DNA of 64,000 nucleotides from an uncultured Chloroflexia bacterium (GTDB lineage: Bacteria > Chloroflexota > Limnocylindria > Limnocylindrales > CSP1-4), in contig CAVVJT010000003.1 in NCBI GenBank assembly GCA_963748625.1, positions 192,001 through 256,000 on the forward strand, written 5' to 3'. The notes beneath the pieces were generated by a model. It was not told the origin of the DNA. It did no database searches and saw nothing but the letters and a program-made list of their open reading frames with translations. The translations under genes were made by a program, and so were the position numbers. Below, one piece after another: positions 13,117 to 58,473 of the stretch (positions within the stretch are counted from its first letter, which is position 1; each line of letters opens with the position of its first letter).

Positions 13117-13509
13117 TTACGGGAGGTGGACGACCTGCCGGTGATCCCCCGTCGCATTGTGCAATTCCAGCAGCAGGGGCTGCTCGTGGCCCTCGAGGGC
13201 GGCCACCGCGATCCGGCCATACGGTCCGACGCCGATGATGAGCACGGGAGCGCCAGGACGGAGGTCGAAGATGACATCGCCTGCCACCATCGTCTCGTCA
13301 TCGACCTCCACGACCAGGATGCTGCCGTTCCCGCGCGGCTCCTCGATCAGGTTGATCCCGAAGCTCCCGCCCTCGCCCGGACAGACGCCGGACGCACCAC
13401 CCATCGCGAACTGCACCTCGAGGCACGCGCCAACGTCGGCCTCCTGGAGGACCAACCGCCACGGGCTGTCACCGAGCCGCCCTGACGTGGGCGGCTTCCT
13501 CGTGGCCAC
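13117..13509 (-). CDS. Hypothetical protein (130 aa)
   Basis: Protein-like composition and GC3 bias; TACGCT -10 box 6 nt before the GTG start. Confidence 0.65.
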   Translation of the reverse strand: MATRKPPTSGRLGDSPWRLVLQEADVGACLEVQFAMGGASGVCPGEGGSFGINLIEEPRGNGSILVVEVDDETMVAGDVIFDLRPGAPVLIIGVGPYGRIAVAALEGHEQPLLLELHNATGDHRQVVHLP

Positions 13510-13621
13510 AGACTCAGCGTAGGGTCACCAGCGCGGCGTCCGTGCGGGGACTGCACGCCATGTCGAGGTTCGTTGCACGCGGCGTGCGGGCACGGCCGCC
13601 AGGTGACTCCCAGCCGGGTCA
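13510..13621. repeat. Copy 1 of dispersed ~112-bp double-palindrome element
   Basis: AGACTCAGCGTAGGGTCA (13510-13527) + 76 bp + TGACTCCCAGCCGGGTCA (13604-13621); fills the whole intergenic gap. Confidence 0.75.
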
Positions 13622-15247: not shown

Positions 15248-15306
15248 GAGGCGCTCGCCAGACCGCGAGGCGCTCGCCAGACCGCGAGGCGCTCGCCAGA
15301 CCGCGA
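15248..15306. repeat. 19-bp intergenic tandem repeat x3
   Basis: gaggcgctcgccagaccgc three times, identical. Confidence 0.93.
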
Positions 15307-15337: not shown

Positions 15338-15450
15338 TGACTCAACCCCGGGGTCCTCAGGTGATGCACCGTGCGGCAGGCGTGCACCCAGGTCCAGTCA
15401 GCTGCACGTCCCGTGCACGGATGGCCGTTCCCTGACTCCCGGCGGGTTCA
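15338..15450. repeat. Copy 2 of dispersed ~112-bp double-palindrome element (opposite orientation)
   Basis: TGACTCAACCCCGGGGTCC (15338-15356) + 76 bp + TGACTCCCGGCGGGTTCA (15433-15450); reverse complement aligns with copies 1 and 3. Confidence 0.72.
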
Positions 15451-40288: not shown

Positions 40289-40489
40289 ATGGCTCGCAGC
40301 TGCGCCGTCTGCGGCAAGGTGTCGATGGGTGGCTTCAACCCGCAGTCGTCGGGGATGAACCGCGTTCGCGCACACCGCCGCTACCAGCCGAACCTCCAGG
40401 TCACGACGGTCAGCGGCAAGAACGGTGCGCCTGAGAAGGCGCTCGTCTGCACGCGCTGCCGCCGGACCGCCACCAAGAGCGCGCGCTAG
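40289..40489 (+). CDS. rpmB: 50S ribosomal protein L28 (Zn-binding form)
   Basis: MARSCAVCGK...PNLQ...VCTRC; divergent from asp23-DAK2. Confidence 0.9.
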   Translation: MARSCAVCGKVSMGGFNPQSSGMNRVRAHRRYQPNLQVTTVSGKNGAPEKALVCTRCRRTATKSAR

Positions 40490-40539: not shown

Positions 40540-40640
40540 CGTGTGCCCTGCCGGCGTGCTCTGCCGGCGTTCGCCGGCGCTGCCTGACTCACCACTGGAG
40601 GGGCTATCCGGTTGACTTCGGTTCCCACAAGATGTAGTGG

Positions 40641-40919
40641 TCAGCCCTGCGACTCCGTCATGCCGCTCCGTCCTCGCACGAACCGCCGCCAGCCGAGGAC
40701 AAGGACACCGAGTCCGACCACCATCCCAACGAGATAGGACGTCCACACGGCGACGATCATGGTCAGGGTGTCGTCGATGACCGAGAGGTCGTCGCCGTAG
40801 AGGAGGACGAGGATCCAGTGGCCGACAAGGGCGCACGCGAACGTCGCGGCGAGACCGACCAGGACGGCGATCCCGGCCAGCATCACGAACTTGGCGGCCC
40901 CGATCAGGTGCCTCGTCAT
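40641..40919 (-). CDS. Small two-TM membrane protein (IS passenger)
   Basis: 92 aa, two hydrophobic segments; ATG overlaps the transposase stop (TTATGA); lies inside the TIRs. Confidence 0.65.
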   Translation of the reverse strand: MTRHLIGAAKFVMLAGIAVLVGLAATFACALVGHWILVLLYGDDLSVIDDTLTMIVAVWTSYLVGMVVGLGVLVLGWRRFVRGRSGMTESQG

Positions 40920-41560
40920 AATCGTCCCCCTGTCTGACGGGCCGTTCCGTCCGCCGCTGCCGCCTCTGACGCACCGAGAGGTTCGATCGTGGCGCTGACG
41001 CCGCCTGCGGCCTGCGACGTCGCACGGACGACCTTCTTCGACGGCGTGAAGGGCACCTTCGGCAGGTCCTTCGCGCCGGTGATCGTGTCGTAGGTCGTCG
41101 GGCGCGCCCGGTCCCGAGGCCGAGCAGCGTCTGGAAGGCGGCGGCGAGGTTGAGCCGGCGGTTGTGGCGGAACACGAACTCGTCGAGGTAGACGGCGAGG
41201 TGTCGGCGGGTCACGCCGCGATGGGTCCCATTCAGCCACGCCTTGAGATTCCCGATGGCCTGGTGAGCCGCGTCCGTTCGAGGTTCACGGTGGCCCGGCG
41301 CAGCTTATGGAGGATCATCCATGCCGTCTCGTAGCGGGCGATGCCGAGTTGCCGCTGGATCCCGAGGGCCGATACCCCGCGCTTGTCGGTGATCATGAGG
41401 AACGCCACCCAGAACCAGATGAGAAGGGGCGTGCGGGTCCGGTGGAGGATCCGTCGGGCCATCGGCACTCGGCCAGATACTGCTCGCATGCCTCGTCGGT
41501 CGAGAACCGGCGCTGGAACTCGATGAGGGTCTTGGGGAGTCCGGGGCGTCGGGCGGCCAC
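40916..41560 (-). pseudogene. IS1595-family transposase, internally deleted and frameshifted
   Basis: Fragments in several frames: PKTLIEFQRRFSTDEACEQYLAECRWPDG; ILHRTRTPLLIWF..KRGVSALGIQRQLGI..YETAWMILHKLRRA; IGNLKAWLNGTHRGV..HLAVYLDEFVFRHNRR. Zn ribbon and most of the DDE core are missing. Confidence 0.88.
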
Positions 41561-41617
41561 AGGTCGACACTGTGAGTTGCGCTGACCGGATTCAACCGGA
41601 TAGCCCTTCCACCACTG

Positions 41618-41717
41618 AGTCAAGGGATGCCCGTCCGAGCGTGGGGCGTACGCGCAACTCGGACCTGACCGCACGGTTCACGCGGGACCTGGGCCCAGGT
41701 GACTCCCCGCGGGGTCA
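41618..41717. repeat. Copy 3 of dispersed ~112-bp double-palindrome element (left palindrome split by the IS; its first 13 bp lie at 40585-40597)
   Basis: Reconstructed TGACTCACCACTGAGTCA + 77 bp + TGACTCCCCGCGGGGTCA (41700-41717); ccaggtgactccccgcggggtca matches 13599-13621 at 21/23. Confidence 0.75.
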
Positions 41718-41741: not shown

Positions 41742-42203
41742 CTACGCCGGAGCGGCGCGGTCGGTGGTGTCGAGCCAGATCGTGAACGGGCCGTCGTTCA
41801 CCAGCTCCACGGCCATCTCGGCGCCGAACTCGCCCAGTTCGACGCGCTTCACCCCCTCGACCTCGAGGCCCGCCGCAACCCGCAACCAGAGGACCTTGGC
41901 GAGGGCCGGCGAGGCGGCGTCAGTGAAGCCCGGCCGGCGGCCGCGACGGATGTCCGCATACAGGGTGAACTGGCTCACGACCAGCGCCTCGCCGTCCACG
42001 TCGAGCAGCGACCGGTTGGTCTTGCCCTCGTCGTCCTCGAAGATCCGCAGCTCGCAGATGCGGCGGGCCACCCAGTCCGCGGTGTCCTCGTCGTCCCCAC
42101 GGCCCACGCCGAGGAACACCAGGAGCCCGGGGCCGATGGAGCCCACGACCGCGCCAGCGACGCGGACATCAGCGCGGGTGACCCGCTGGAGCAGCGCGCG
42201 CAC
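41742..42203 (-). CDS. dtd: D-aminoacyl-tRNA deacylase
   Basis: MRALLQRV, VSQFTLYAD, GEFGAEM..NDGPFT. Confidence 0.96.
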   Translation of the reverse strand: MRALLQRVTRADVRVAGAVVGSIGPGLLVFLGVGRGDDEDTADWVARRICELRIFEDDEGKTNRSLLDVDGEALVVSQFTLYADIRRGRRPGFTDAASPALAKVLWLRVAAGLEVEGVKRVELGEFGAEMAVELVNDGPFTIWLDTTDRAAPA

Positions 42204-45788: not shown

Positions 45789-45986
45789 GGCACCGTCTGT
45801 CACGCGTGGCAGCGTCTGTCGCGCCTGGCCACGTCTGTCACGCGTGGCAGCGTCTGTCGCGCCTGGCCACGTCTGTCGCGCCTGGCCACGTCTGTCGCGC
45901 CTGGCCACGTCTGTCGCGCGTGGCCCCGTTTGTCGCGCGTGGCCCCGTTTGTCGCGCGTGGCCCCGTTTGTCGCGCGGGGCCCCGT
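45789..45986. repeat. 19-bp intergenic tandem array, about 10 units with graded variants
   Basis: Units ggc(ac/ag/ca/cc)cgt(c/t)tgtc(a/g)cgc(g/c)t with no spacers. Confidence 0.95.
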
Positions 45987-46169
45987 CCTGCCGCCCGGCG
46001 GGCACTGCGAGCAGAAACCCGCACGTTCGTGCCGCCTGGCGGCCGGTTCAGCCCGAAAACGGGCGCTGGGGCTCGTCCTGCCCGCTGGACGGTTGGACTG
46101 CCCAGGATCCTGCACGCAGGGCCCGCTGGGCGGGAGCTCGACCCTGGTGCGCGATCCGTGGCGGCGGGA

Positions 46170-46824: not shown

Positions 46825-49572
46825 CTAGAGGAGCGACTCCGGGTCCACGTCCACGCTCCACGGAGCGCCGGGCGGCGGTTCGAGGAGGGCGGCCGGATCC
46901 GCACCGCGGAGCACCAGGTTGAAGCGCCATCGCTCGGCACGCCGCGCGATGTAGGCGGGGGCAGGACCGATCACCTGCACCACGAGCCCCATGTCCCGCG
47001 CCCGGTCGCGGAGTCGGTCGGCCATCGCGAGCGCCTCACGCTCGGCCGCGTCCCGCTCGGCCAGGCCGACCGTGAGCTTGATGAGCCGTCCGAACGGCGG
47101 CGAGCCGAACCGTTCTCGGAGCGCCAGCTCCTCGTCGTAGAAGGCGGCAGCATCGCGCTCAACGACGGCGCGGATCGCCCGATGGTCGGGCCGGTAGGTC
47201 TGGATGTACGCGAGCCCGGGGCGATCCCCGCGGCCGGCCCGGCCCACCGCCTGGGCCAGCAGTTGGTACGTCCGCTCGGAGGCACGCTCGTCGGGGAGGT
47301 TGAGCGCGATGTCCGCCGAGACCACCCCAACCAGGGTCACCTCGGCGACGTCGAGCCCTTTGGCCACGAGGCTCGTGCCCACCAGGACATCAAGGCGGCC
47401 GGAGGCGAAGGCGTCGAGCACGCGCTCGGCCGCCCCCTTGCGCTCGACGACATCGCGGTCCAGGCGTCCGACGCGCAGCCACGGGAACCGGTCGCGCACC
47501 TCGCGCTCGACGCGCTCCGTCCCTCCGCCGAGATAGCGGATCCGCGGCGAGGCGCACGAGGGGCAGCGGGTCGCGATCGGCCAGGCCCGCCCGCAGTGGT
47601 GACAGCGCAGCGTCGTGCCCGCCTGGTGGTAGACCAGCGGGCGGTCGCAGTCCGGGCAGGATTGAACGGTCCCACAGTCCCGGCACAGCACCACGGACGC
47701 CGTGCCCCGCCGGTTGAGGACCAGGATCGCCCGGTCGCCGGCACCCGTGTCGAGCGCCGCGAGCGCCCCTGCCAGCGCCGCCGAGAGCAGGCCCCGGTTG
47801 CCCGCCGCGAGCTCGGCGCGCATGTCCACGGCCTCAACCAGCGGCTCCGCGCCGGCCGCCCGGACCGGCAGCACCGCCCGCCGGTAGCGGCCCGCACGCG
47901 CATGGCCCATCGTGTCCACGGCGGGCGTCGCCGAACCCAGGACCACCGCCGCCCCGGCGAGCCTGCCGAGCTCCACGGCCGTGTCACGGGCCTGGAAGCG
48001 CGGCGTCCGGTCGCTCTTGTAGGCCGGGTCGTGCTCCTCGTCGACCACGATCAAGCCGACGTCCGCGAGCGGGACCAGCGCGGCGGTCCGGGTGCCCACC
48101 ACGACGTCCACGTCGCCGGCCCGGATCCGGCGCCACTCGTCGGCCCGCTCCCCTTCCCCGAGGCCCGAGTGCATCACCGCGACGCGCACCGGCAGCTCCG
48201 CCCGGAGCCGATCGGTGATCGGGGTGGCCAGCGCGATCTCTGGCACGAGGAGCAGGCACGGCCGTCCCGCGGCCAGGCTGGCAGCCATCGCCTCGACGTA
48301 GATCGCTGTCTTGCCGCCGCCGGTGACGCCGTCGAGCAGGACGGGTGTCGGGTCGCGTTCGGCCACCGCCGCCAGGACCATGCCCAGCGCGGCCGCCTGG
48401 TCGGGCGTCAGCGCCGCACCGGTGGGCCGCGCACCACGCAGGCCGACCGGCCGGGAGGCGAGCGGACGGCGCGGCCGCTCGCGGACCTCCGTCCGCACCA
48501 GGCCACGCCGCACCAGCCCCGCGATCGCCGACGCGCCGTGGCGCTCCGAGATCCCGGCCGCTGCCACACCGTCGCTTGGGCCATTGCCGGCTGCGTCGTC
48601 GCCGGCTGCGTCGTCGCTGGCTGCCTCGTCGACGGCCGCCTCGTCGACGGCTGCCTCGTCGACGGCTGCGGGCGTCGCAGCGAGCTCGGTGAGGGCGTGC
48701 TTCTGGCGCGGCCCCAGCGGCCTCCCGGCGGGCCGCTCCCCGTCCCCCAGCAGGACCGCAACGGCCCGCCCTTCCGTCGTCAGCCAGACGCGCCGCTCGT
48801 ACCGGGGCCCGATCGCCGCCCCAAGAAGCGTCCACGTCAGCTCCACGAGCCCCTCGTCGGCCAGGATCCGCAGGCGCCGCAGGAGGCCCGCCCGGCCCTC
48901 GGGCGCCGCAAGATCGCGCACCGGGCGGGCTCGCCCCGCCATGTCGTCGAGCAGGTCGACGTCGGCGGAGGCCAGCACGCGTCCGGGCAGGCCTGGCTCA
49001 GCCGAGCCTGGCTCAGCCGAGCCAGGCTCCTCCGGGCCCAGGCGTGCCTCACCGGTCGGGCCCGTCGCTGTCGGGCCCGGAGCTGCCGGCCCCGGAGCTG
49101 CCGGCCCCGGAGCTGCCGGCCCCACCGGCGCATCGAGGCCCAGGCGCGCCTCCCCGGCCGGCGTCACCTCGGCCACCAGTTCGAGACGCTCGAGCATGCC
49201 CGGGGGCAGCATCGCCCGGATCACCGTCGCGAGCGGCGCGAGATACCGCTCGGCCACGAGGCCTGCGAGGGCAAGCGCGAGCGGCGGCAGCAGGGGTCCG
49301 TCGGAGCGGACGCGGGCGGCGATGGGCCGCGCATGCGCGCCAGGCGGCAGGCTGCCCTCCCCCAGGACCACGCCGATGGCCTGGCGGCCGCCCTTGCCGA
49401 AGGGCACGAGGACGGCCTCGCCCGGCTCCACGTCGCTCAGCGCGGATGGGACCTCGTAGGTGTACGTTCGAGGGCCTGGGGTGCCGGGCGCGTCGACCGC
49501 GACCGCGACCAGGCGGCGCGCCCGGTCCGTGACCGGCCCCGCCCCGGTGTCGAGCCCGAGCGTGGGCGGCAC
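46825..49572 (-). CDS. priA: Primosomal protein N' with repeat insertions
   Basis: GVTGGGKT, VDEEHD, GSATP, four CxxC pairs, GLDV, QAVGRAGRG, DVDP. Confidence 0.95.
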   Translation of the reverse strand: MPPTLGLDTGAGPVTDRARRLVAVAVDAPGTPGPRTYTYEVPSALSDVEPGEAVLVPFGKGGRQAIGVVLGEGSLPPGAHARPIAARVRSDGPLLPPLALALAGLVAERYLAPLATVIRAMLPPGMLERLELVAEVTPAGEARLGLDAPVGPAAPGPAAPGPAAPGPTATGPTGEARLGPEEPGSAEPGSAEPGLPGRVLASADVDLLDDMAGRARPVRDLAAPEGRAGLLRRLRILADEGLVELTWTLLGAAIGPRYERRVWLTTEGRAVAVLLGDGERPAGRPLGPRQKHALTELAATPAAVDEAAVDEAAVDEAASDDAAGDDAAGNGPSDGVAAAGISERHGASAIAGLVRRGLVRTEVRERPRRPLASRPVGLRGARPTGAALTPDQAAALGMVLAAVAERDPTPVLLDGVTGGGKTAIYVEAMAASLAAGRPCLLLVPEIALATPITDRLRAELPVRVAVMHSGLGEGERADEWRRIRAGDVDVVVGTRTAALVPLADVGLIVVDEEHDPAYKSDRTPRFQARDTAVELGRLAGAAVVLGSATPAVDTMGHARAGRYRRAVLPVRAAGAEPLVEAVDMRAELAAGNRGLLSAALAGALAALDTGAGDRAILVLNRRGTASVVLCRDCGTVQSCPDCDRPLVYHQAGTTLRCHHCGRAWPIATRCPSCASPRIRYLGGGTERVEREVRDRFPWLRVGRLDRDVVERKGAAERVLDAFASGRLDVLVGTSLVAKGLDVAEVTLVGVVSADIALNLPDERASERTYQLLAQAVGRAGRGDRPGLAYIQTYRPDHRAIRAVVERDAAAFYDEELALRERFGSPPFGRLIKLTVGLAERDAAEREALAMADRLRDRARDMGLVVQVIGPAPAYIARRAERWRFNLVLRGADPAALLEPPPGAPWSVDVDPESLL

Positions 49573-58400: not shown

Positions 58401-58473
58401 GGCGGCGCCCGGCCCCTGTGGGCGGCGCCGGGCCCCTGCGGGCGGCGCCCGGCCCCTGCGGGCGGCGCCCGGC
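58401..58473. repeat. 20-bp intergenic tandem repeat, about 3.6 copies
   Basis: ggcggcgcc(c/g)ggcccctg(t/c)g at 58401, 58421 and 58441, partial at 58461. Confidence 0.92.

Follow-up and report, generated by a model that had tools for sequence, protein, structure and literature searches.

A stretch of 64,000 nucleotides of an uncultured Chloroflexia bacterium (the window; contig CAVVJT010000003.1, positions 192,001 to 256,000) carries a 1012-bp insertion sequence (IS) element of the IS1595 family that lies exactly in the middle of a palindrome, and this palindrome is the first hairpin of an intergenic repeat. We think it probable that the element is a fossil copy of an IS1595 lineage that was inserted, by DDE transposition with an 8-bp stagger, at a preferred two-fold symmetric motif which the hairpin supplied. 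The target preference of the lineage is well supported by the flanks of its copies in other genomes, and these are compared below.

The element occupies positions 40598-41609 and has on either side the 8-bp direct repeat CACCACTG, identical at 8 of 8 positions, the borders of which are unambiguous because the adjoining bases differ at both sides. Excision of the element together with one copy of CACCACTG gives TGACTCA-CCAC-TGAGTCA, with a 7-bp stem and a 4-nt centre; the duplicated 8 bp are symmetric about its dyad, and 5 bp of arm remain on each side. A preliminary description of this DNA had read the locus as an IS1595 derivative in the centre of a palindrome that excision restores, with an 8-bp duplication centred on the dyad axis, and the flanks bear out each of these points; the family assignment is confirmed by a relative, L001 (see below), that passes the family models. 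When emptied of the element the window (~63 kb) contains 15 perfect 7+4+7 palindromes, and simple arithmetic from this count puts a random insertion centred on such a palindrome at about 2 in 10,000. For a lone case picked out by eye this figure is suggestive and no more. The intact 18-mer palindrome has no second occurrence within the window, even with 3 mismatches. The insertion is intergenic, between the convergent genes rpmB and dtd.

The terminal inverted repeats of the element match at 22 of 25 positions, and a 15-nt core of these repeats, GGGCTATCCGGTTGA, occurs exactly twice in the window, once per strand and both times at an end of the element. The TGACTC segment that is conserved in the terminal repeats of its relatives is substituted in both window inverted repeats. 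Comparison with the full-length element L001 gives four blastn blocks of 89-94% identity. Relative to L001, the window copy lacks positions 160-265 (106 bp), which correspond to the second half of the zinc ribbon, and positions 454-775 (322 bp), which correspond to most of the DDE domain, and it has an additional 1-bp deletion beyond these two large gaps; its transposase has been destroyed by the two internal deletions. The NCBIfam model NF033547 scores 56.9 bits on the window copy and covers 54 of 215 positions, below its cut-off of 75 because the match is partial, while Pfam Zn_ribbon_IS1595 (PF12760) scores 18.2 bits against a cut-off of 25.4 because the 106-bp deletion takes the second half of that domain. 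No Pfam DDE match is found in the window copy. The copy is thus a decayed, non-autonomous IS1595-family element that can no longer move by itself. We also note an open reading frame (ORF) at 41393-41674 (minus strand) that spans the flank, the terminal repeat and a transposase remnant; it reads through because the in-frame TAG that ends the frame just inside the proximal terminal repeat in L001, L003 and L011 is CAG in the window.

Small hydrophobic ORFs lie downstream of the transposase in several copies of the lineage and differ from copy to copy. They are 92 amino acids (aa) in the window (40641-40919, minus strand), 160 aa in L001 (2927-3409, minus), 182 aa in L008 (6225-6773, minus) and 56 aa in L003 (1408-1578, plus). 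Those of L001 and L008 are homologous to each other and the window ORF is not homologous to that of L001. None of these ORFs has a Pfam or NCBIfam match; they look like passenger membrane proteins.

Relatives were sought by scanning public genome contigs with a pattern made of the part shared by both terminal repeats, and 13 loci were returned. The source genome lay outside the scanned collection: none of the 13 loci had two matches, though both ends of the window element fit the pattern. Five loci form the close lineage, all in metagenome-assembled genomes (MAGs), namely L001, L003 and L011, labelled Candidatus Limnocylindrales, and L002 and L008, labelled Chloroflexota; where a transposase is present these are 95% identical in protein. 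The G+C content of the five loci is 68-72%, and that of the window is 71.5%. With the labels of the loci, this makes a Limnocylindria-type Chloroflexota the probable host of the window, although the IS may instead have crossed between phyla; a tblastx comparison of the loci with the window gave nothing but noise. L001, from a Limnocylindrales MAG, is a 1674-bp full-length element with a 357-aa transposase that scores 110.9 bits with Pfam DDE_Tnp_IS1595 (PF12762; residues 134-277), 52.8 bits with Zn_ribbon_IS1595 and 186.6 bits with NCBIfam NF033547. L003 is a 1261-bp copy with an intact 342-aa transposase, inverted repeats and an 8-bp direct repeat. Of L002 only a remnant of 76 bp is left, and L008 consists of one end and a passenger gene. 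L001 and L011 lie on two short contigs of one MAG, and since neither copy has a direct repeat, each must have lost one original flank, either to a rearrangement or in assembly.

Farther away, the Terriglobales locus L009 is a distant relative with 49.6% aa identity, and an element on a Rhodococcus plasmid (L014) has 52.4%; no direct repeat or palindrome was seen at either. The plasmid collection held nothing above 73% identity to the window element. The other seven of the 13 loci (L004-L007, L010, L012 and L013) have no transposase homologue and were set aside as unrelated. In a protein search, 4499 proteins among the 8000 candidates scored had E<=1e-30, with the closest clusters coming from jgi, ena and Logan (lgn); the IS lineage is evidently common in metagenome data, where it goes without a name. 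The terminal-repeat core CTATCCGGTTGAC is common to IS1595-family elements of Chloroflexota, Terriglobales and Alphaproteobacteria that are only ~50% identical in protein.

Apart from the window copy, only L003 has a direct repeat within the lineage, and its empty site is CGACTCCGTGGTGAGTCG. The window site written in transposase orientation is TGACTCAGTGGTGAGTCA, and the two sites are identical at 15 of 18 positions, with registers that differ by no more than 1 bp. As the DNA around them is unrelated, the window and L003 insertions are independent. The half-site by the distal end of L001 reads CGACTCA-GCTATG and that by the proximal end of L011 reads TGAGTCA-CCGACG, each with its heptamer at the register seen in the window. 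Overall, 6 of the 10 close-lineage ends have YGA(C/G)TCA at a distance of 5-7 bp outward from the tip (both ends of the window copy and of L003, the right inverted repeat, IRR, of L001 and the left inverted repeat, IRL, of L011). By the registers given above, the point of insertion within the palindrome is fixed. The four central bases, in transposase orientation, are GTGG in both the window and L003 and are different in the two half-sites; since the centres vary between sites, conservation seems to lie in the arms and not in the centre.

The 128,000 window positions contain GACTC or GAGTC 192 times, from which the chance of such a match in a 3-bp register window is ~0.005 per end. On these counts, a match at four independent sites cannot be chance. 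The idea that an IS without any target preference fell into a palindrome, with the resemblance of L003 a coincidence, would be in keeping with the generally varied targets of the IS1595 family (7 copies of ISAcr1, discussed below, have 7 different 8-bp repeats). We find it hardly credible in the face of a centred 7+4+7 match of about 2 in 10,000 in the window, a second independent insertion whose site agrees at 15 of 18 positions in the same register, and the heptamer at 6 of 10 ends.

The repeat in which the palindrome lies is ~113 bp long and has three copies in the window: two are uninterrupted (copies A and B) and the third, copy C, is split by the element (40585-40597 and 41618-41717). 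All three are intergenic and have at each end a hairpin that starts with GACTC, with a spacing from the first GACTC to the second of 94, 95 and 95 bp. The L003 site likewise comes first in a pair of GACTC-type hairpins, with a spacing of 95 bp. Pairwise identity among the window copies is 68-72%, and in leave-one-out nhmmer searches the omitted copy was always the top non-training match in the window (E 2e-6, 0.0095 and 0.013), in agreement with the earlier view that the palindrome is the left arm of a dispersed element. The repeat family is evidently real but diverged. No further copies were found in the 64-kb window at E<=1 by nhmmer, and neither the repeat nor the region has an Rfam match. 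A profile built from four copies (the three in the window and that at L003) found no new copies, its L003 match being by construction. The possibility that the repeat is a miniature inverted-repeat transposable element of this IS was rejected, as its ends lack GAGGGGCTATCC and copies A, B and C have no flanking direct repeats. A perfect tandem repeat (19 bp x 3.1, 15248-15306) lies ~30 bp upstream of copy B.

YGACTCA precedes both ends of the window and L003 copies at nearly equal distance, much as an extended inverted repeat would, which could be taken to mean that the conserved flanks belong to the mobile unit, with true ends that start at TGACTCA or with repeat and IS moving as a composite. 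This is very improbable. Positions 8-11 of such an extended repeat mismatch and no duplication lies outside it, while both copies have a perfect 8-bp direct repeat; the uninterrupted copies A and B place the heptamer in the host repeat; and the IS copies are ~90% identical while the repeat bodies around them are not recognisably homologous.

Each full site is also a stem-loop, of 7+4+7 for the window and 6+6+6 for L003, and leads a pair of hairpins spaced 94-95 bp apart, as would be expected if the transposase recognised the hairpin or cruciform shape of the repeat, or if strand transfer took place on single-stranded or extruded DNA, with the common site sequence reflecting only the shared descent of the repeats. 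We regard recognition of shape as unlikely: the 14 other perfect 7+4+7 palindromes of the emptied window are all unoccupied, as are the right hairpins of the same repeats, and the repeats fold no better than shuffled sequences (below). The flanks of L001 and L011, moreover, keep the heptamer register while their centres differ, an indication that it is sequence that counts. Four elements from two genomes have a pair of similar palindromes at a fixed spacing of 94-95 bp, a pattern that a dimeric DNA-binding protein would fit, and a host protein bound to them might tether the transpososome so that the IS targets whatever the protein marks. We give such tethering little credence, since it has no candidate protein, the right-hand palindromes are never occupied in the four elements seen, and no repeat is detectable near the half-sites of L001 and L011.

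ISAcr1, from Acidiphilium and Acidithiobacillus plasmids, is the nearest named relative in the searched collections (71.7% DNA identity over 120 bp) and serves as a control for the family. Like the window lineage it has a terminal-repeat core, CTATCCGGTTGACTC, a length of ~1.1 kb, a single zinc-ribbon and DDE transposase and 8-bp duplications; unlike it, it has no downstream membrane ORF and its targets are unrelated and armless. We examined its best place in each of 8 plasmid records (8 of 16 places). Seven of these 8 copies have 8-bp direct repeats, with 7 different sequences, and none of the 7 duplication-bearing sites has GACTC/GAGTC arms; the sites are mutually unrelated. An 8-bp target duplication is stated for the IS1595 family in passages of PMC8101967, which also give an N-terminal zinc ribbon to all IS1595 groups except IS1016, and the duplications of ~8 bp that the preliminary description took as established are thus found in the window, L003, ISAcr1 and the literature alike. 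The 8-bp duplication is, by this comparison, evidently a family trait, and the palindromic target evidently is not. The same ISAcr1 right flank is present in the Acidiphilium plasmid L017 (NC_009469.1) and the Acidithiobacillus plasmid L023 (CP084173.1); only L023 retains the 8-bp direct repeat, and therefore the left flank in L017 was rearranged after insertion. It is a speculative thought that the domain that binds the element's ends might dock on the target too, as the target arms resemble the TGACTC segment of the ends.

Several observations weigh against insertion of the lineage at a preferred motif supplied by the repeat. Just two insertions with intact duplications are among the reachable copies, and in L003 the duplication is 1 bp off the dyad when the tips are placed by homology, with a ninth shared base that leaves the border ambiguous by 1 bp. 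A profile of the three window repeat copies misses the L003 element (best E 6.9); therefore what the window and L003 repeats are shown to share is the two-hairpin architecture, not homology, nor does the comparison fix which way the L003 element runs with respect to the window copies. The other two repeat copies in the window are empty, and their left hairpins are imperfect and differ from the site that was hit (AGACTCA-GCGT-AGGGTCA and TGACTCAACCCCGGGGTC). The repeats fold no better than shuffles (z -0.13, 0.39, -1.22 and -1.12), which leaves a special structure unsupported. L001 and L011, around whose half-sites no repeat is detectable, come from one MAG as short contigs, which may be chimeric. 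ISAcr1 has the inverted-repeat core too, TGACTC included, but no such target, and mimicry of the element's own ends by the target is the less plausible for it. Finally, 4 of the 10 ends have unrelated flanks (L001 IRL, L011 IRR, L002 IRL and L008 IRR); we take these as uninformative rather than contrary because they are on copies without direct repeats or on remnants. The earlier expectation that empty sites in related genomes would share TGAC-N10-GTCA is borne out wherever the flanks are informative: L003 agrees in the form CGAC-N10-GTCG, and the agreement extends to the two of two duplication-bearing insertions only, not to these four ends. Those two insertions, which are two of the four complete copies, both lie inside a two-hairpin repeat of this kind.

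Our preferred account runs as follows. The 8-bp duplication shows that the element came in by DDE transposition of the ordinary kind, with an 8-bp stagger between the cuts. The site was not a random one: the comparison of flanks shows that the lineage prefers YGA(C/G)TCA-N4-TGA(C/G)TCR and joins its ends 6 bp inside each heptamer, so that the duplication straddles the dyad. Most likely a two-fold symmetric transpososome would read the identical heptamer to either side of the cuts, like other DDE elements whose target consensus is symmetric. The motif is supplied, in the window and one further genome, by the first hairpin of the ~113-bp two-hairpin intergenic repeat; as the repeat supplies it in intergenic DNA, insertions would fall between genes and do little harm. 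The lineage probably picks such palindromic sites on purpose. The recognised object may be the motif YGA(C/G)TCA-N4-TGA(C/G)TCR rather than the repeat family, because the L001 and L011 half-sites carry the heptamer without a detectable repeat. That the repeat itself is recognised, or acts as a safe harbour, rests on two sites, and we infer the safe-harbour role from its intergenic position. The repeat-targeting IS1595 of the preliminary description thus stands as regards target preference, for which the 15/18 site of L003 and the 6 of 10 ends speak, and is less certain where it has the repeat itself recognised.

A bolder version is possible, and we hold it tentatively, leaning somewhat against it: an IS1595 transposase with nearly site-specific integration into an 18-bp YGACTCA-N4-TGAGTCR may have co-evolved with a two-hairpin landing pad, like a repetitive extragenic palindromic (REP) sequence, of Limnocylindria-type genomes, and would be the first case of homing to palindromic repeats in the family. 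If true, the system would be small, consist of one protein and have a target code that can be read. A DDE transposase that works as a single protein on a defined, symmetric 18-bp target could, once confirmed, serve as a simple model of target choice in the IS1595 family, to which the eukaryotic Merlin transposons are related, and would open a way into a little-known repeat family of uncultured Chloroflexota. Insertion sequences that home to extragenic palindromes are able to persist without killing their host, and hot spots of genome rearrangement are marked by them. With so few sites, the case is a lead and not a result.

The features discussed are listed in Table 1. At the left neighbour, the terminator scan made no call at a GC-rich hairpin and T-run that is visible by eye after rpmB. 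An avoidance of GACTC/GAGTC, as by a restriction system, was considered and dropped: TGACTC occurs 14 times versus 30.7 in dinucleotide shuffles, but GACTC occurs 96 times against a Markov expectation of 96.2. Elsewhere in the window there are a tandem array at 45794-45987 (19-bp unit, consensus CGTCTGTCGCGCGTGGCCA, 10.2 copies, 90% matches), a perfect 36-bp x 3.6 tandem repeat at 617-747 that is probably within a coding region, and short tandem arrays at 58401-58473 (period 20 bp), 48586-48678 (15/30 bp) and 49067-49123 (15 bp).

Table 1. Features of the insertion, the intergenic repeat and their surroundings (window coordinates unless a locus is named)
Feature	Position	Strand	Basis or context
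Left half of the interrupted palindrome: arm TGACT, then left direct-repeat copy CACCACTG (40590-40597)	40585..40597	.	Sequence; alignment to the left hairpins of copies A and B
Internally deleted non-autonomous IS1595-family element, 1012 bp	40598..41609	-	blastn to L001 element; transposase remnants on minus strand
IRR, terminal inverted repeat distal to transposase start, GAGGGGCTATCCGGTTGACTTCGGT	40598..40622	+	90% identical to L001 IRR end over 50 bp
92-aa hydrophobic ORF in passenger position, downstream of transposase remnants	40641..40919	-	No family match (Pfam, NCBIfam)
Transposase remnants, four blocks = L001 transposase (357 aa) residues 1-37, 70-135, 243-287 and 301-335	40988..41560	-	tblastn and alignment
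IRL, terminal inverted repeat by transposase start, minus strand = GAAGGGCTATCCGGTTGAATCCGGT	41585..41609	-	22/25 match to other end
Right copy of 8-bp direct repeat CACCACTG	41610..41617	.	Sequence; then AGTCA to 41622
Rest of repeat copy C: right arm AGTCA, body, right hairpin TGACTCCCCGCGGGGTCA (41700-41717)	41618..41717	+	Repeat-family alignment, nhmmer
Repeat copy A, uninterrupted	13509..13621	+	Between an ORF without assignment and the 3' end of the RNase HII gene
Repeat copy B, uninterrupted	15338..15450	+	Downstream of a PhzF-like gene
Terminal-repeat core CTATCCGGTTGAC	L015 1690-1731; L009 1641-1665; window 40598-40622		Terminal-repeat comparison
Ribosomal protein L28 (rpmB)	40289-40489	+	Left neighbour gene
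D-Tyr-tRNA deacylase (dtd)	41742-42203	-	Right neighbour gene

A search of the full-text literature found no palindrome or REP targeting by IS1595 elements, and an earlier description may exist; PMC10433421 and PMC10214660 name both terms, but in passages that have no bearing on the matter. Insertion into extragenic palindromes is reported in parts of PMC1525189 for the IS3, IS110, IS4, IS256 and IS5 families, and the same source places IS1016 (now in the IS1595 family) near REPs in just 2 of 17 copies and notes for IS30 that a DNA-binding motif of the transposase is required for binding of specific targets. ISRm22 (IS4) and the IS110-family elements ISPpu9, ISPpu10, ISPa11 and IS621 resemble the present lineage in that all or most of their copies are in REPs (10/10, 7/7, 7/7 and 6/6 in PMC1525189); by comparison, only 2 of 4 complete copies of the IS1595 lineage are scorable as inside a repeat. 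The IS110 elements differ further in having a different recombinase and no terminal inverted repeats (PMC1525189, in the sections that treat them).

The repeat itself is like REPs and the bacterial interspersed mosaic elements (BIMEs) built from them, and like REPINs (REP doublets forming hairpins), in being a short extragenic palindromic target with paired hairpins at a fixed spacing and several copies per region. It differs in the low identity of its copies, 68-72% among the 3 found in 64 kb. The DDE elements Tn10/IS10 and IS231A, and IS30 at its palindromic hot spots, likewise have a two-fold symmetric target consensus that is symmetric about the staggered cuts, and differ in that these are hot-spot preferences within ordinary DNA that are not linked to a dispersed repeat. 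IS1397 and ISKpn1, of the IS3 family, make a short duplication of 3-4 bp. They also differ from the element described here in family, in their two-ORF frameshifted transposase and in that their targeting is experimentally proven, whereas the target of the IS1595 lineage is known from sequence alone. They resemble it in other ways, and the preliminary description had cited IS1397 as another IS that targets palindromic repeats: as reported in the passages of PMC1525189 that concern them, IS1397 and ISKpn1 are DDE elements found at a fixed point in the palindromic units of enterobacterial BIMEs, and it is the transposase that is thought to choose.

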